Assembly: GCF_054482525.1 (NCBI RefSeq)
Contig: NZ_CM137006.1
Direction: 5' to 3' (one strand)
DNA length: 64,000 bases
In this document: piece after piece, positions 36,143-44,166 of the stretch
Numbering within the stretch: position 1 is the first letter of the stretch
Layout: every line of letters begins with the position of its first letter
Notes under the pieces: generated by a model
Database searches by the model: none
Told to the model about the DNA's origin: nothing
What the model saw: the letters and a program-made list of their open reading frames with translations, nothing else
Translations under genes and position numbers: made by a program

Positions 36143-36224
36143 CAACCAAACGACTCGGGGTGCCCTTCTGCGTGAAGGCTGAGAAATACCCGTATCACCT
36201 GATCTGGATAATGCCAGCGTAGGG
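36143..36224 (+). repeat. attL-like direct repeat: orphan copy of the 5' 82 nt of the thiM TPP-riboswitch leader
   Basis: 82/82 identity with 44023-44104, checked by eye. Confidence 0.85.
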
Positions 36225-36307
36225 GGCCAAAATAGTCTTGAAAATTATGTGGTTGTATCTCTTTTTGACCATAAATCATGCTGTTAAGGTACAAAAAGGG
36301 GTCGTTT

Positions 36308-37615
36308 ATGAGGTCAAGAACTCTCCCATACACATTTCAGCGAAACGGTAATTACTATCTACAAATCCGGCTTTCGGATGGTCGGATATACAAAAAATCA
36401 CTTTTTACTGACAGTTATCGCGAAGCATCGGCGTTGATGATTGGCCTTACTCCGCACATTCCTTTCGTTAAATCACTCGCTACTCCGTTGCCGCAATTTA
36501 ATAAGTTTGTTTCAAACTTGATCGCTTCGTCACGTAACGTAATGATTCCGTTGCCACTCCCTCAGCAATTGAACAATATTTCTAAAGAAGTTTTGCAGCT
36601 TCAACCACCAGCCAAACCGGAAAAGGTACTAACACTTGCTGATGCGTGGGCTATGTACAAGGAGGAAAGAGGTCGAAATTGGACAAAATCGATCTCAATA
36701 GCAAATGAGCGTTATATGGAGGTATTGCTTGTTGTCTTGGGAAAAGAAACAGACGTAACGGCAATCACCAAACAAGATATTAAGCGAGTAATGGAAACTG
36801 TCGAAAACTTACCAAAGCGTGTAGTGCAACCGTATAGGTCAATGACTATTCAGCAACTAATCGAATGTGATGATGTGCTGCCAGAGGATTTAGTTGGTGC
36901 TGAGGCTGTACATAAGCACCTTAAAATCTACAAATCGTTATTCAAAACATTTCTGACTGAAAACAAAGATATTCTATCTAAGTCTCCGACTGATGGAATA
37001 GTAGCGGCACCATCCAAAGCTAGGTTTGGTGCATACAGTGCAGCAGAAATGAAAAAATTTGTAGGATGGGCACTAAAGCAGCCTGATGGATGGCAGAAGT
37101 GGATCACTTTGTTGTTGGCGTACACAGGAGCCAGAAGAGGTGAGATTGCTAAACTGGAGAAGTCGCAGATCAAATTTGATGAAGATAGCCAGCGGCACTA
37201 TCTTCTGATCGCGGAAAGAAGGCTGGGTAAAACTGAGAATGCTACAAGACAGGTAGTGATTCATCCCAAACTGATTGAGTGGGGGTTTCTGGATTTTGTT
37301 AACCGCCAATGGAAAGAGAAAATCTTTTCGGAAGTCTCAGGTCGAAATATGTCAAAGATAGGTAAAGTTCTTTCAGATGTTCGTGATCAGCTTGATATTC
37401 CTTATCTTGATGATTATGGGCAGCGGCGCTTGGTGCATAGTTTCCGGCATACTATGATTTCTACTTGTTTAGCTGGTTGGGTGAGTAATTTGGCGCATCT
37501 GCAACAGGTGGTAGGTCATGAAAAGAGTGGAGTAGGGATTACCCAGCGTTATCTGCACACATTCCCACTTTCCACCGTTTGTTATGTGATCGATGGTCTT
37601 TGTTGGGAGACTTAG
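36308..37615 (+). CDS. Tyrosine recombinase/integrase
   Basis: Catalytic residues in TGARRGE, HSFRHT and ITQRYLH; start may be 36278 or 36308. Confidence 0.85.
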   Translation: MRSRTLPYTFQRNGNYYLQIRLSDGRIYKKSLFTDSYREASALMIGLTPHIPFVKSLATPLPQFNKFVSNLIASSRNVMIPLPLPQQLNNISKEVLQLQPPAKPEKVLTLADAWAMYKEERGRNWTKSISIANERYMEVLLVVLGKETDVTAITKQDIKRVMETVENLPKRVVQPYRSMTIQQLIECDDVLPEDLVGAEAVHKHLKIYKSLFKTFLTENKDILSKSPTDGIVAAPSKARFGAYSAAEMKKFVGWALKQPDGWQKWITLLLAYTGARRGEIAKLEKSQIKFDEDSQRHYLLIAERRLGKTENATRQVVIHPKLIEWGFLDFVNRQWKEKIFSEVSGRNMSKIGKVLSDVRDQLDIPYLDDYGQRRLVHSFRHTMISTCLAGWVSNLAHLQQVVGHEKSGVGITQRYLHTFPLSTVCYVIDGLCWET

Positions 37616-37743: not shown

Positions 37744-38469
37744 ATGGTTAAAAATTTAGGCAAAAAATACAAGTATGGCGATCAACCGATAAGAGCTATT
37801 ACCATACAGATAATTGCTAATCAGTTTGGTGGGGCTGCAACGGCTAAGCAGGTAGATGATTATCTTAGAAAGCTATTTCCATCTTATAAAGATAATACTT
37901 GGCTCAATTTAATTGCTAATACAGTTAATTGTAAGCGGAGCTACTGGAGTTTCAACAAAACTGCCCGACGAACTGATGATGTAACTCATCGGCATCATAA
38001 GTATGACCGATTGTTCAAGCGTGGAAATATTTTTGAAATCTATCAACCATCTGTGCACGGTATTTGGGAATTATACCAGGATTTAGAAGGGATGTGGCGT
38101 TATCGTCAAGTAAAATCGGTTTTCGAAGAAGCTGTTGAGACGGCTGCAAAATTATCTTCAGTGGAACGAAAGCAAATTTTAGCGACAGAAAGTAAAATCC
38201 CGGAACTAATCGAAGTAACAACACGAGTTTATAAACGAAGCCCATATGTAGTTGCTGAAGTTCTTTTGAGAGCAAATGGAAAATGTCAATATTGTAAGCG
38301 AGATGCTCCTTTTCTAAAGGAAGATGGTACTCCATTTCTAGAAGTTCATCATATTGAGTGGCTTTCAAAGGGGGGGGAGGACTCTGTGGAAAATGCTATT
38401 GCATTATGTCCTAATTGCCATAGACAAGCCCATTATGGCGATCTGACATTACTACCTGTTAATAAATAG
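37744..38469 (+). CDS. HNH nuclease with McrA-like C-terminal domain and unrecognised N-terminal domain (candidate type IV restriction enzyme)
   Basis: C-terminus CQYCKRDAPFLKEDGTPFLEVHHIEWLSKGGEDSVENAIALCPNCHRQAHYG closely parallels the McrA HNH motif as I recall it. Confidence 0.7.
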   Translation: MVKNLGKKYKYGDQPIRAITIQIIANQFGGAATAKQVDDYLRKLFPSYKDNTWLNLIANTVNCKRSYWSFNKTARRTDDVTHRHHKYDRLFKRGNIFEIYQPSVHGIWELYQDLEGMWRYRQVKSVFEEAVETAAKLSSVERKQILATESKIPELIEVTTRVYKRSPYVVAEVLLRANGKCQYCKRDAPFLKEDGTPFLEVHHIEWLSKGGEDSVENAIALCPNCHRQAHYGDLTLLPVNK

Positions 38470-38894: not shown

Positions 38895-39004
38895 TTGTCT
38901 CCCTTGGTGTGTCAAATGGATGGTGATGCTAATAATACATGATTGATTCAAAATGTCACGATTAGTGCGTGGTTAATTGGTGCGTCAAATTGCATCTTTG
39001 TGCC

Positions 39005-39469
39005 ATGCGAAAGAATCTGAGATACCTTTTTGGACAACGAGTAAAAGAGTTCCGTATAGCTATTGGCTTAAGCCAAGAGGCCTTTGCAGATCGGTGTGGT
39101 TTTGCACGTAGTTATATGAGTCGAATTGAGCGTGGTTGCTCTAATGCATCTCTTGATGCAATTGAGGTTCTGGCTGACGCTTTGCGTATTGAGCCTTGGC
39201 AGTTACTGGCTTCTGATTCAAGGAAACCTGATGATCAGGAGGTACTTGTTCCTTATGCTGCAGATGGGTCGTGTTTTCATCCAGGATTGGCAAGTACTCG
39301 CGATGGTTCGTTTAGAGTAGGGGAAAAATCAGCCCAGAAACGTTTCAGTTCGTTCAATGAAGCTCTCGAATACCTTCGTGGAATGGAAACCGCGAAGTGG
39401 CGTAGGCCTAATGCTAGTGGTAATTGGGGAATTGTATCTGCGGTTAAATGGGATCGACTGAATCAATAA
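39005..39469 (+). CDS. XRE-family HTH protein with about 80-aa C-terminal domain of unknown function
   Basis: N-terminal HTH (LSQEAFADRCGFARSYMSRIERG); start placed at MRKNLRYL. Confidence 0.65.
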   Translation: MRKNLRYLFGQRVKEFRIAIGLSQEAFADRCGFARSYMSRIERGCSNASLDAIEVLADALRIEPWQLLASDSRKPDDQEVLVPYAADGSCFHPGLASTRDGSFRVGEKSAQKRFSSFNEALEYLRGMETAKWRRPNASGNWGIVSAVKWDRLNQ

Positions 39470-39635: not shown

Positions 39636-40187
39636 TTACGCCACCTGCTCTTTCTTGATACGTTGCACCGTCTGCGTGCTGACACTGAAATCTTTTGCTA
39701 CGCTCCGAATTGAGCCACCATTCGCGAGAGCGGCAGCAATTCCCGCTCGATCAATTGCTTTTCCATTACCACGTTTTGCTATACGTCCAGCGGCCTTGGC
39801 TGCGGCGATCCCTTCACGTTGACGCTCAAGCATCATTTCACGTTCCATTTGTGCCACTGCTGCAAGAACTGTGAGCATCATATTCCCTGCGGGAGAGTTC
39901 TTTCCTGTCTTAAAGTCTTCTTTATGGAAATGCACAGACACGCCGCGCTTTGTTAATTGCTCTACAGTTGCCAGAAGGTCGGCTGTATTACGACAAAGGC
40001 GATCAATACTATGGACGTGTAACACGTCACCCTCCCGCACATAGTTCATCATTGCCTCAAACTGTGGGCGCTGAGTGTTCTTGCCTGACGCTTTATCTTC
40101 AAAGACTTTATCAAGAGTTACTCCTGCTAATTGACGGTCTGTGTTTTGTTGCACAGTCGATACCCTAATGTATCCAATATTAGCCAT
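39636..40187 (-). CDS. Serine recombinase (resolvase/invertase family)
   Basis: N-terminal IGYIRVSTVQQNTDRQ with catalytic Ser; C-terminal HTH. Confidence 0.85.
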   Translation of the reverse strand: MANIGYIRVSTVQQNTDRQLAGVTLDKVFEDKASGKNTQRPQFEAMMNYVREGDVLHVHSIDRLCRNTADLLATVEQLTKRGVSVHFHKEDFKTGKNSPAGNMMLTVLAAVAQMEREMMLERQREGIAAAKAAGRIAKRGNGKAIDRAGIAAALANGGSIRSVAKDFSVSTQTVQRIKKEQVA

Positions 40188-40674
40188 CTTCTTTTTTCTT
40201 CTGTATTGATTTGTGTGTAGTGATTATTGAACGTGTTGATTAGGTGTGTAAAGTACTTTTTTCACTACGAAATTCGAAGTTTTTTAGTGTGGTGATTTAG
40301 CCTGCCTTATCACTACACTTCTTGCATGAGAATCATGTAGTTACATTTTGGTAAAATTAGCAAGCTATTAAATTGTGTGTTTATTTTGAAAAAATAATTT
40401 TTGTTGCATTAAAGAAAACTTGTTCGACAAATAATAGGTTGATTTTTGATCAATAATTTCTGATAGTGCTCTGTAAGCCGCATTACACAAGGCGCAGCGA
40501 AAGTGATGTAAAAGTGAAGAAAGCTAACATTGCACTTTTAAACTACTTTTCATTGAATTTTTTAGTATGGAATTACACAGGAATAAGTTAGGGATATTCT
40601 ATGATTTACACAGGGAATATAGGGGGATTATGGTATTACACAGAGTGAGTGCTATGTGATGATTGGTAGTAACG

Positions 40675-40782
40675 GTAGGTCACTGTGAACTAGGGGGGTA
40701 GGTCACTGTGAACTAGGGGGGTAGGTCACTGTGAGCTAGGGGGTAGGTCACTGTGAACTAGGGGGTAGGTCACTGTGAACTA
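40675..40782. repeat. Iteron array: five tandem 22-23 bp repeats (gtaggtcactgtgaactaggggg) next to an AT-rich tract
   Basis: Contiguous direct repeats with no spacers, followed by ataagactataataagactattaataaaacta. Confidence 0.8.
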
Positions 40783-41883
40783 CAATAAGACTATAATAAG
40801 ACTATTAATAAAACTATATTAGATTATTAATTAGATCATAATAATAATATTCTTTATATCTATATATATATGATCTTTTGCCTTCCGGCGTTAGCTTCAC
40901 TCTCTGGCAAGCAGCCTTACTCCGCTACCTTTCGGGCTACGTTGGCTGGCCCGTTCCGCTCACACCGAAAGCAAAGCGTTACTTTCTTCGTGTAACTTCG
41001 TTGGCGGTAACGCCCACGAAGGAATACTATTGCGCTGTGCGCAGTAAGAGTAATCACCTAACCAATCATCTGATTGCTTACGTGTTAACTCTCTCTAACT
41101 CTTAATTACCCTCCTACATTTAATAACTCTCGTTATTCTCTGTAGTTGTGTAATTACTCGAAGAGAGAGCGGCTAAAGCTCAATTACACTCTGCTTTCCT
41201 CGTGTAATTTCACTAAGCCTCAATACAATTTCACTTCCTACATTCTGTAGTCGTGTAATTGTTTTCGGTGGAAAAGCCAGAGGCGACACCGAAAGAGAAT
41301 TCTGATCTTATTAATCTTATCTATCTTAGTTATCTTACTTACTTTATCTACTTTATTATTAATAATAGCTTTATAAGCTCTCTGTGTAGCTCTCTGACGC
41401 AAGAAACAGAGTTCAGGAAGGGAATCACCTTAGAAAAGTGTTCTTTGCGTCATAATGTGTTTTATGAAGGATTCAGAGGTGTTTCATAACAGAGATGTAT
41501 AGAGGATACTTTAGGTAATTAAAAATAAGGGGTCTAAATGCTTCTCTAACAGCATTAAGCAGGGTAGAGAATGGAAACCGCTTTGCCTACATATATAAAC
41601 TCACTACAGGGCTTTACAGAGCGTTTTATAAAGTGACTCTCTGTTTTATATCTACCATCACCTTTTCATATACCTAACAAATACAAAATAAGCCCCTTAA
41701 ATAAGCCTCTGGCGAGCTAAACAGCCATTACATAAGAGAATGTATTGCTTTTATCAAAACCTCGTTAGAACGCGTTTTAGAGCGTTTTAGCGGATAATGA
41801 AGAATAGCACTACACAGGAGAGCACGAATTGCTAAGAAAAAATGTAACTACATGAAAAAGATCAGATTTTTTGTGAAAAGGTA

Positions 41884-41912
41884 TTGACAAACGTCTCTTT
41901 CTGTGCAATAAT
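41884..41912 (+). promoter_or_regulatory. Candidate sigma70 promoter for the downstream operon
   Basis: TTGACA, 17-bp spacer, then TGcAATAAT extended -10. Confidence 0.45.
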
Positions 41913-42038
41913 AGGTATTAGAGGGACAGGAATAGATTCTTATCCTCTAAATAATTAAACCAATGCACCGCACTTTGAAGCCCAAGGCTTGTAAGGTGTG
42001 TTTTTTCTTTTAACCAAATAGAATAAGGAGGCTAATTA

Positions 42039-42227
42039 ATGAAATATTTTACTCCACAGGATGTAGTAGAAGCCTGGAAACGTGGTGAGATCAACCGCTT
42101 TAAAGTAAGGATGTATAGAAACACCGCTCGCCGTTGTGGTTATCCAGAGCGTGAAAAATGTTTTGACGATGCACTAAAAATTATTGATGAACTGCGTAAA
42201 GCTGAGAAAGAAGCAGAGAAAAAATAA
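42039..42227 (+). CDS. Small hypothetical protein (62 aa)
   Basis: Strong SD aggagg; first gene of a tightly packed operon. Confidence 0.55.
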   Translation: MKYFTPQDVVEAWKRGEINRFKVRMYRNTARRCGYPEREKCFDDALKIIDELRKAEKEAEKK

Positions 42228-42249
42228 TAGACAAGAGAAGGAGAAAACT

Positions 42250-42417
42250 ATGAGCGAAACTAAGAAACCAATTCCGCGCACTTACCTACACGTTGACCCT
42301 GAAATCTTCAAGGTTTTATTTGCTGAAGCCAAGAAAAGGCAAATTATGGTCAGTGATTTGATGTTAGAAATCATTACTGAAGCAGCAGAGAACATCAAAC
42401 AAAAAAAGGGTAAGTGA
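42250..42417 (+). CDS. Putative ribbon-helix-helix DNA-binding protein (55 aa)
   Basis: SD aaggag; beta-strand RTYLHVDPEIF followed by two helices, typical of CopG/Arc-type RHH. Confidence 0.55.
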   Translation: MSETKKPIPRTYLHVDPEIFKVLFAEAKKRQIMVSDLMLEIITEAAENIKQKKGK

Positions 42418-42468
42418 TCCTCATTCACTTTAGTAGCGCATTAAGCGTGATTTATAAGGAGATTTTTA

Positions 42469-43158
42469 ATGATTAATCAACTAACTTTTACAAAACACTA
42501 TGACACGTTTGATAATGTATCAAAGATTTATTCTGATAAATTCCCTCAAGGAAAAGATTTAGATCTATTACATATTGTGCTTTATTTTCGATTCCTTAGT
42601 TATCAGGAAAACAACCTTAATTGTTATGAAAGTCACGAAACATTAGCTAAGATTTTTAAGTCTTCAGCGTCAACAATTAAACGTAAGATAAACGATCTTA
42701 AAGAGATGGGATTATTAGAAACATCCCCACATCCTGATCCGTATATTTCATCTTTGATTTACAATGCTCTCCCTCTCACAGATGCACATATTACTCCCCC
42801 AGGAGAATCATCACTCTCTGATCTTTCTGAGGCAGAAGAAGCACAGGAACAACCTAAAGGCCATAAACAGCCTTCTTTTGATGTTCTTGATGATTGGGAT
42901 ACGCCTTTACCCTGGGAGACGGAAGAAACACCTGTTTCATCAAGTGAAAAAGTAGCTAATGATAATGAGGAGGATGTGTTAGAGAATTTTGCCTCTCTTA
43001 TCATCCAGGAGAAACACACAAGAACAGGAGGAGCATCATTTATTGAGTTTGCAAATTCACTAGCTTGTAGATACGGGCTAAAACGACCAAATGGTATTGA
43101 GGCATATTTTTCTAAGAATTACCCAAATATATACGATGACTTTGATATTCCATTTTAA
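42469..43158 (+). CDS. HTH protein with acidic linker and SSB-like C-terminal tail (229 aa); possible replication or recruitment protein
   Basis: SD aaggag; HTH-like ETLAKIFKSSASTIKRKINDLKEMGLLE; acidic low-complexity middle; C-terminus YDDFDIPF resembles the E. coli SSB tip DFDDDIPF. Confidence 0.6.
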   Translation: MINQLTFTKHYDTFDNVSKIYSDKFPQGKDLDLLHIVLYFRFLSYQENNLNCYESHETLAKIFKSSASTIKRKINDLKEMGLLETSPHPDPYISSLIYNALPLTDAHITPPGESSLSDLSEAEEAQEQPKGHKQPSFDVLDDWDTPLPWETEETPVSSSEKVANDNEEDVLENFASLIIQEKHTRTGGASFIEFANSLACRYGLKRPNGIEAYFSKNYPNIYDDFDIPF

Positions 43159-43169
43159 TAAGGAGGGTT

Positions 43170-43415
43170 ATGATTCAATATTTAGTAAAAAATCAAGTAG
43201 ACAGAATTCAGTGTAATGACACAGGAAAACGCATCTACGAGACACTTGTTTACCTCTATAAAGGAAAGCCAACACCGCTAAAATATAGCGATGTGTTACA
43301 TCGAGCAGGTTGCTCTGAGTCAGGTTTAAAATTCTGGCTGAAACAGCTATCAAATTTCGGTGTTATTGAAATGAAAGAGCTGTCTTTTTCTACATTCAAC
43401 CTCAAGAAGTTATAG
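43170..43415 (+). CDS. Small winged-helix-like protein (81 aa)
   Basis: SD aaggagg; last gene of the operon. Confidence 0.5.
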   Translation: MIQYLVKNQVDRIQCNDTGKRIYETLVYLYKGKPTPLKYSDVLHRAGCSESGLKFWLKQLSNFGVIEMKELSFSTFNLKKL

Positions 43416-43580
43416 AAAATAGAATTCATCTATTCCACGCTCTAATTCTATTTCTCTGTTTAATATAAAAGGAAAACATTATTATGGTAATAGCTATGTG
43501 GTGGTTGTTGTTTTTTATGCTCGTAGAAACATATGCAAGTAAGTCTGGAAAACAAAAATAATATATTGATGATTTGTTTT

Positions 43581-43820: not shown

Positions 43821-44022
43821 TTTTTATCTCACCTATCAAATTTAGATAAATAATATAAATTAGCAAATTAAGATAATCAATAGTTTTTATCATCTGAATG
43901 ATAGATGTTAAATGTTTCTTTTTCATTTCTGATATGGGGTACAAAATGGGGTACACAGAGAAGAAGCAATTAATGGAGGCGAGCTTGCATCTGCAAGCCA
44001 CTTCCCCTAAGCTGGCACAAAA

Positions 44023-44166
44023 TATAGAGATTCAACCAAACGACTCGGGGTGCCCTTCTGCGTGAAGGCTGAGAAATACCCGTATCACCTGATCTGGATA
44101 ATGCCAGCGTAGGGAAGTCACGGACCACCAGGTCATTGCTTCTTCACGTTATGGCAGGAGCAAACT
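44023..44166 (+). promoter_or_regulatory. TPP riboswitch (thi-box) in the thiM leader
   Basis: Contains ctgagaaatacccgtatcacctgatctggataatgccagcgtagggaa immediately upstream of the thiM start codon. Confidence 0.9.

Follow-up and report, generated by a model that had tools for sequence, protein, structure and literature searches.

The 64,000-nucleotide stretch of DNA analysed here (the window; NCBI RefSeq assembly GCF_054482525.1, contig NZ_CM137006.1, one strand) is part of an E. coli chromosome, in which a 7,890-bp island is inserted between rcnR and thiM. A segment of this island at about 40391-43533, common to many other islands and hereafter called the module, comprises an array of short tandem repeats (iterons), an AT-rich tract, a long conserved non-coding region and a four-gene plus-strand operon for proteins of 62, 55, 229 and 81 amino acids (aa), the third of which resembles replication initiators. 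The module probably serves the replication of the 7.9-kb island, which is integrative and would be a member of a satellite-like family widespread in E. coli; the proposed mechanism is given below.

The five type-A iterons (40674..40782, plus strand), each with the internal dyad TCAC-T-GTGA, lie in a stretch of 1,851 bp free of annotated genes (40188-42038) between a serine recombinase gene and the operon. Tandem Repeats Finder gave a period of 22, 4.8 copies and 96% matches for the consensus GGTAGGTCACTGTGAACTAGGGG (40674-40782). A 19-nt core recurs five times in register at spacings of 23, 23, 22 and 22 bp, and the array appeared in none of 100 shuffles, with none expected by chance. The AT-rich tract that follows (40783..40872), a presumed unwinding element, is 86.7% A+T with a degenerate periodic repeat of ~11 bp and holds the most AT-rich 80 nt of the island (90%); in distant relatives the AT maximum is found at the same position.

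A second repeat, TTACACR, the shorter core of ATTACACAG, surrounds the array and the tract. Four plus-strand boxes at 40483, 40573, 40606 and 40636 (40483..40642) stand left of the iterons and are conserved in relatives of every initiator type described below, and a motif search located four minus-strand boxes right of the AT tract at 40989, 41147, 41201 and 41252 (to 41258). The orientation of the two sets is strictly convergent, and eight copies in 776 bp compare with 0.16 expected (Poisson P ~1e-11). The DnaA consensus TTWTNCACA has no match in 40188-42038, and one-mismatch DnaA boxes occur across the window at the chance rate (142 observed against 134.7 expected). The longer repeat ATTACACAG was therefore rejected as a DnaA box, and since near-matches are found only at the chance rate, DnaA does not explain the convergent TTACACR boxes. 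The boxes are retained whatever the initiator type, and so are presumably recognised by a factor that the family shares or the host provides.

An initial annotation, made from the letters of the window alone, had described five contiguous 22-23-bp iterons, an AT-rich tract after them and an adjacent serine resolvase/invertase gene, all of which hold: the array is recovered by Tandem Repeats Finder and absent from the shuffles, the tract is the AT maximum of the island, and the gene is an intact 183-aa open reading frame (ORF). It had also listed three copies of ATTACACAG, of which two are exact (40572 and 40635, the only exact ones) and the third is TTTACACAG (40605); a fourth copy reads ATTACACAA (40482), and the four opposite-strand TTACACR copies right of the AT tract had been overlooked.

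The link between the iterons and the 229-aa protein emerged from comparison with relatives. Set against the variant L002, the island of the window shows 89-99% identity outside two segments that have been replaced, one with the iterons (40615-40838) and the other with the initiator gene (42248-43135). The N-terminal domains (N-domains) of the initiators fall into five types, A to E, with 97-100% identity within and ~18-30% between types, type C having two subtypes that are 81% identical. The arrays next to the AT tract likewise form five types, A GGTAGGTCACTGTGAACTAGGGG, B TGATACCCCTATCAA, C ACAGAATTCTGTTAGACACCCCC, D ACCTAGGAAATGAGTTCC and E GTAACG-N4-GTTACA, each with its own dyad, and the type of the AT-proximal array equals that of the resident initiator in all 22 loci derived from isolate genomes. 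The succession of array and AT maximum recurs in distant relatives, where the initiator gene follows the array at a distance of ~1.4 kb. Because neither of the two alleles of the 55-aa gene tracks the iteron type and the rest of the module is conserved whatever the type, the winged-helix N-domain is the only candidate for the cognate iteron binder. The pairing of types thus lends indirect support to a cis-encoded initiator that would be specific for its iterons.

Multiple tandem iteron arrays of two to four types each were observed in the relatives L004, L007, L008 and L027. The order in L007 is A, C, B, D and then A, and the array at the final AT tract alone matches the resident initiator. 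The distal arrays look like remnants of successive exchanges of origin cassettes.

The initiator-like protein of the window (229 aa; 42469..43158, plus strand) carries the existing names 'transcriptional regulator', 'helix-turn-helix domain-containing protein' and 'hypothetical protein', and PGAP calls it a transcription factor. Its PHROG matches are all replication initiators, O-like or DnaD-like, the best being phrog_270 'replication initiation protein' (1.9e-9), with no terminase among them; Pfam returned the generic HTH_36 only. The family is narrow, with 39 representatives among 1.84 billion clusters. An AlphaFold (AF2) model built on a 22-sequence alignment displays a confident winged-helix domain at residues ~15-110, a disordered, acidic, proline-rich linker at 114-165 and a helical C-terminal domain (C-domain) at 167-226. 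In the PDB, Foldseek ranks best, though at a weak E of ~0.01, the N-domains of RepA_N initiators from staphylococci, with a Rep-DNA complex among them. Among fold matches in BFVD, generic helix-turn-helix and DNA-binding labels set aside, every functionally named one is a replication protein, replisome organizer or replication initiator (to 8e-6).

The C-terminus of this protein is DDFDIPF (43138-43158), and most full-length members of the family share this ending in the form ...[DE]F[DE]-IPF, even those with a different type of C-domain. The hexapeptide DDDIPF at the C-terminal end of SSB (single-stranded DNA-binding protein) is described in PMC5872125 as the site through which SSB binds its partner proteins. 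The DDFDIPF tip resembles this SSB tip, and ahead of it, as also in SSB, comes a linker that is disordered, acidic and rich in proline. Given this resemblance, and given that the ORF list and profile matches revealed no primase or helicase ORF in the island, we infer that the tip may recruit host replication proteins.

An alternative explanation is that the repeats are operators and the 229-aa protein merely a transcription factor controlling transcription across the non-coding region. The names in the sources and the single HTH_36 match agree with it, transcription from a weak promoter-like site at 40605-40634 would run into the repeats, and the covariation would demonstrate cognate binding rather than replication. 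However, the array abuts the AT maximum of the island in every relative and stands 1.1 kb from the operon promoter, the PHROG and BFVD likenesses are to replication initiators and replisome organizers instead of repressors, and a repressor would have no evident use for the conserved acidic linker and the SSB-like tip. Five tandem dyad sites are, moreover, typical of origins such as ori-lambda. Operators are consequently considered an unlikely explanation, and covariation and anatomy give good support to reading the repeats as a probable initiator/iteron origin.

Right of the AT tract lies an ultra-conserved non-coding region (40873..41880), with 93% mean column identity among elements whose initiators have been swapped; this identity persists across differing initiators, integrases and insertion sites. 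The region holds the four minus-strand TTACACR boxes (40989-41258) and a 9/13-bp repeat at 41299-41350. A coding role was excluded, because indels of 1, 2, 4, 12 and 13 nt between relatives break any frame. No Rfam match was found for 40873-41880, and the predicted single-strand fold of 40860-41260, at its left end, is much stronger than that of shuffles (z = -5.45). Since the sequences are 93% identical, this spacer was examined by alignment rather than by covariation analysis. Possible roles are those of a packaging site, a transcript or a component of the origin complex.

The operon begins with a promoter at 41884..41912 (plus strand) that is sigma-70-like and strong (11/12 matches), reading TTGACA-17-AATAAT and having the TG of an extended -10. 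Its first gene encodes the 62-aa protein (42039..42227, plus strand), which has no PHROG match, and its last, the final gene of the conserved module according to the ORF list and the relatives, encodes the 81-aa protein (43170..43415, plus strand); Pfam returned nothing for the 62-, 55- and 81-aa proteins. The second gene, directly upstream of the initiator gene, encodes a 55-aa ribbon-helix-helix (Arc/CopG-like) protein and presumed regulator (42250..42417, plus strand). Its AF2 model (pLDDT 86) has two helices after an extended stretch at the N-terminus, the putative strand of the fold. The top Foldseek matches are all ribbon-helix-helix proteins, namely Arc, CopA, MazE, CopG and the Sulfolobus copy-control protein ORF56, the five best having query-normalised TM-scores of 0.65-0.74. 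Plasmids commonly have a cop-like repressor gene ahead of that for the initiator.

Near-exact copies of the 55-aa gene are present in the lytic E. coli phages muut and inny (~146 kb, Justusliebigvirus, phAPEC8-like). In muut, 233 bp are 99.6% identical (42238-42470 of the window; L034 2501-2733) and the encoded 55-aa protein is 100% identical, and in inny (L035) ~230 bp are 98.3% identical and the protein is the same over 53 residues, with a different C-terminal end. These two are the only phages with the gene among 50,697 records, in which muut is entered twice (GenBank and RefSeq). The copies suggest a recent gene capture and an arms race between phages and islands.

Left of the origin region, the small serine recombinase of the resolvase/invertase family (183 aa; 39636..40187, minus strand) matches phrog_125 'DNA invertase' (2e-61). 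It aligns over its full length to the Tn3 and gamma-delta resolvases (3e-27), as expected of a small serine recombinase with a catalytic domain and a C-terminal helix-turn-helix, and to Gin (2e-24), and its catalytic-domain motifs are present, including the conserved N-terminal 'RVST' segment. The identity, estimated by eye from the alignments, is ~38-40% to both the resolvases and Gin and is not diagnostic. Upstream of the gene, a candidate res/operator region (40201..40318) contains three GTGTAGTGAT-like 10-mers within 104 bp, at 40215(+), 40287(+) and 40309(-), the last two of which form a dyad with a 12-bp spacer; it overlaps a promoter-like site at 40252-40223(-). A look-up of res subsites near the recombinase yielded no assignable three-subsite architecture. 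This upstream region travels with the recombinase gene and is missing in relatives that have no recombinase, and a second recombinase allele (62% aa identity) is found at the same position in relatives together with different upstream dyad repeats. Because five of 14 relatives have neither the recombinase nor a remnant of it, the gene is an accessory and not a core part of the replicon. Multimer resolution is a plausible and the most economical role for it.

The 1.5-kb segment that holds the proposed origin lies between the arms of a perfect 17-nt inverted repeat. The left arm is TCATGTAGTTACATTTT (40333..40349, plus strand), and the right arm (41839..41855, plus strand) matches it perfectly in this lineage only, relatives having AAAATGTAAGTGCATGA. 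A CACTACAC motif precedes both arms (41806-41815 for the right one) and is also repeated upstream of the recombinase gene. The recombinase might accordingly be imagined as an invertase that flips the segment between the arms and thereby switches the orientation of the origin or of a promoter, a notion favoured by the perfect repeat with its near-palindromic core and non-palindromic central GT/AC, and by the best PHROG match. Nevertheless, a search with a synthetic chimeric query (at least 80% coverage) detected the flipped junction in 0 of 5,426 genomes, 685 of which hold one half of the query. The right arm of the relatives has two central mismatches even where the left arm is identical, and it is also present in relatives without the recombinase. 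In addition, the protein, with ~38-40% identity to Gin, falls outside the tight Hin/Gin/Cin/Pin group. Inversion is therefore judged very unlikely, and resolution remains the preferred role.

The island that carries the module is bounded by two copies of an 82-bp exact direct repeat identified by junction alignment. The attL core (36143..36224, plus strand) lies in a thiamine pyrophosphate (TPP) riboswitch aptamer, and the attR core (44033..44114, plus strand) completes the native thiM riboswitch. Rfam TPP matches at 36146-36241 (61.3 bits) and 44036-44132 (71.2 bits) were the only ones above threshold in the scan of the island, and the RefSeq annotation likewise has two riboswitches; a tmRNA-like match at 43823-44077 that overlaps attR was regarded as noise (15 bits against a gathering threshold of 47, E 0.0075). 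The attL side keeps the native thiM promoter side, and its complete TPP aptamer (61 bits) ends up ~40-70 bp upstream of the integrase start, while thiM retains a full riboswitch at attR but loses its native upstream region. Since aptamer and promoter side now precede the integrase gene, integrase expression might be thiamine-responsive.

From left to right, the island encodes a tyrosine integrase (36278..37615, plus strand; phrog_1 integrase, 7e-27; PGAP 'tyrosine-type recombinase/integrase'), an HNH endonuclease as cargo that resembles type IV methyl-directed restriction enzymes (37744..38469, plus strand; PADLOC mREase_IV, 1.3e-23), a small secreted-looking protein and an XRE-family helix-turn-helix regulator (38969..39469, plus strand; phrog_8, phrog_4 and phrog_3 regulator/repressor; PADLOC 'control protein', 7e-17), followed by the recombinase and the module, with a 79-aa minus-strand gene at its right. 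No partition or transfer genes were found in the island. It is complete in 64 of 5,426 complete E. coli genomes, and in strain SCU-102 its RefSeq annotation is identical. The cargo slot of the thiM islands varies, with the HNH enzyme in the window and a 523-aa DUF262 protein in the variant L011 (121-1692), which is consistent with a small defence island.

The module's 1.2-kb non-coding part occurs in 673 of the 5,426 complete E. coli genomes, and in 413 of these at least 80% of it is covered. Its conserved sequence occupies 767 places, 766 of them chromosomal, and is never annotated as a gene. Full-size relatives of ~12 kb reside at tRNA-Thr (thrW) or tRNA-Gly (L004-L010 and L012-L014; for example L005, 362-11680). 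They are laid out as an optional serine recombinase, the non-coding region, the same operon, several small genes, virion-like genes and an integrase. The virion-like genes encode major-capsid-like (phrog_29), 611-aa tape-measure-like (phrog_16051) and 237-aa tail-fibre/endolysin-like (phrog_817) proteins, for which NCBIfam gave nothing. Among the ten ORFs searched in these relatives, no terminase or portal family was matched and six smaller ORFs had no family match. The 19 loci from IMG/VR were rejected as packaging evidence, since prophage-style calls in isolate genomes account for almost all of them. No description of the family, of a thiM/thrW island or of a Justusliebigvirus-linked satellite was found in the literature searched, although one may exist elsewhere.

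The initial annotation had read the repeats as a theta-replicon origin and the island as either an integrated plasmid or a satellite able to replicate after excision. The first reading gains from the covariation of iteron type with the DNA-binding domain of the initiator and loses in respect of DnaA boxes and of occurrence on plasmids. An integrated plasmid, suggested by the combination of iterons, AT tract, Rep and small recombinase that recalls theta plasmids, is highly improbable. The initiator is encoded on no true plasmid among 72,556 (tblastn, PLSDB, E <= 1e-4), the only match being a 4.9-Mb 'plasmid' record that is actually a chromosome. The proposed search for free plasmids with the same iterons, run at the DNA and protein levels in PLSDB and, for phage carriers, in INPHARED, came back negative apart from that mislabelled record and one real plasmid copy. 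This related copy, on the IncF plasmid pEND_Eco 19019-1 next to sopAB, is a divergent, IS3-interrupted module within a large multi-replicon plasmid. Together with 766 of 767 places being chromosomal, the tyrosine integrase, the 82-bp att duplication, the virion-like genes of the relatives and the lack of partition or transfer genes in the island also speak against a plasmid. The satellite option, by comparison, fits the relatives with their capsid- and tail-like genes. Because of these virion-like genes, the defence cargo in the window and the apparent capture of the 55-aa gene by lytic phages, the evidence points to a satellite-like or minimal phage-like element. The initiator itself was encoded in none of 50,697 phage genomes (tblastn, INPHARED).

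For such a satellite, which would need to be packaged somehow, a TerS-like or ParR-like protein might also bind the repeats as a packaging (pac) or partition (centromere) site, as repeated protein-binding sites do occur in pac and par sites and a ribbon-helix-helix protein, of a fold also found in some centromere-binding proteins, is encoded nearby; but the 229-aa protein has no terminase match, no ParA/ParM ATPase is encoded and type-A iterons occur with both ribbon-helix-helix alleles, which leaves little room for this idea.

These results suggested a replication pathway in which the tyrosine integrase would first excise the island from the thiM riboswitch site. The 229-aa protein would then bind the five dyad-bearing 22-23-bp iterons as dimers through its winged-helix N-domain and subsequently melt the adjoining 90-bp AT tract. 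As the element is without its own primase or helicase, the acidic linker and the SSB-like tip DDFDIPF would recruit host replisome or primosome proteins, and the eight convergent TTACACR boxes on either side would give the origin complex its shape by binding a factor that every member of the family shares. Expression of the initiator would be driven by the promoter at 41884, in one operon with the Arc/CopG-like protein, which probably limits it in an autoregulatory manner. The serine recombinase with its own upstream sites would be an optional accessory, most likely resolving circular multimers to monomers, and the excised element could replicate autonomously.

Several points weigh against this pathway. 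The similarities of the 229-aa protein to initiators are weak (PHROG 2e-9, PDB Foldseek E ~0.01, a generic helix-turn-helix in Pfam), and its tip is like that of SSB at the level of a motif only. Between the iterons and the initiator gene there are 1.7 kb, including the conserved non-coding region. No consensus DnaA box is present, and one-mismatch boxes are at the chance rate. The recombinase is missing without remnant from the five relatives mentioned, and its res site is not defined. The metagenome contig L041 (5416-5866, human-associated), retrieved through the type-A iteron pattern, pairs two type-A iterons with a type-C initiator; it is the single exception to the covariation and might reflect either recombination or an assembly that joined two elements within the spacer, with its 93% identity. 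A metagenome scan with type-A iterons yielded 14 contigs with no terminal overlap, hence no circularity was shown, and all 14 match chromosomally integrated relatives. A free replicating form is supported by neither experiments nor sequence data.

A bolder version of the proposal is put forward with considerable reserve. It holds that ~12% of complete E. coli genomes carry phage satellites (or minimal phage-like elements) of a class not yet described, whose origin would be fired by a new kind of initiator, in which a disordered acidic linker ties a winged-helix domain of swappable specificity to an SSB-tip mimic (DDFDIPF). This tip might pull the SSB partners PriA, DnaG and Pol III chi onto a melted origin that has no DnaA boxes and no primase or helicase from the element. 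Large lytic phages of the phAPEC8 group would be its helpers or its targets and would silence the element with a stolen repressor.

Iteron origins are already known in phage satellites, and the general principle is not new. The module marks a family of small integrative elements in about one in eight E. coli genomes that stands outside the four defined satellite families. Five initiator-iteron pairs exchanged as cassettes in a near-identical backbone amount to a natural experiment in origin specificity, with older arrays left as fossils. The SSB-tip mimic on the initiator suggests an unusual way of recruiting the host replisome, and, in view of the defence cargo and the gene exchange with lytic phages, the mobility and induction of the island bear on the spread of defence islands. 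If they prove true, recruitment through the SSB-like tip and the relationship between phage and satellite would be the main gains.

Among known systems, the module recalls ori-lambda and its initiator O in its tandem ~19-23-bp repeats with internal dyads beside an AT-rich tract, and in an initiator that combines an N-terminal DNA-binding domain with a C-terminal part expected to recruit partners, in line with the O-like PHROG and 'replisome organizer' BFVD matches. Ori-lambda sits within the O gene, whereas the origin of the module is 1.7 kb upstream of the initiator gene. Unlike lambda, the island has no gene for a lambda-P-like helicase loader, and its initiator, unlike O, ends in an SSB-tip-like motif and belongs to a narrow family.

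Islands of the PICI type (phage-inducible chromosomal islands), such as EcCICFT073 with its pri-rep-ori region, are similar in being chromosomal islands with an integrase, an att site and an iteron and AT-rich origin expected to fire after excision. Allelic initiator variants of PICI origins exist within E. coli as well (PMC6092414). PICI use a primase-replicase (Pri-Rep) and have their origin directly 3' of rep, where the AT region lies between two iteron sets; their genes include AlpA, terS and those for capsid morphogenesis. In contrast, the module has a 229-aa winged-helix initiator without an enzymatic domain and a single cognate array on one side of the AT tract, and AlpA, Pri-Rep, terS and capsid-morphogenesis genes were not found in the window island, which has an XRE-family regulator. 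Because these genes are missing and the origin is not 3' of the initiator gene, the element, judged by its gene content, is not a PICI, cfPICI or P4-like element by the published definitions. The ~12-kb relatives likewise fit no definition of P4-like elements, PICI, cfPICI or PLE.

With theta plasmids (RK2 oriV/TrfA, pSC101, F ori2/RepE and RepA_N plasmids such as pSK41), the module shares the succession of boxes, five iterons, an AT tract and a GC-richer stretch, and a winged-helix initiator encoded in cis whose best PDB folds are RepA_N N-domains. It differs from them in its absence from plasmids, in having no consensus DnaA box and in the dyads of its iterons. RepE/Pi-type initiators have two winged-helix domains, whereas the AF2 model of the module initiator shows a single one joined to a disordered linker. 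The recombinase corresponds to the Tn3/gamma-delta resolvase-res systems and to the multimer resolution of RK2 ParA in that it aligns end to end and has candidate sites directly upstream; it is distinguished from Tn3 and gamma-delta by being equally close to Gin, by a three-subsite res that is not definable and by being dispensable in a third of the relatives. Finally, although the 55-aa protein has no sequence-level family match and its gene has apparently been captured by lytic phages, in its beta-alpha-alpha fold and its place directly upstream of the initiator, in one operon, it resembles the Arc/CopG copy-control repressors, such as CopG of pMV158 and ORF56 of Sulfolobus.

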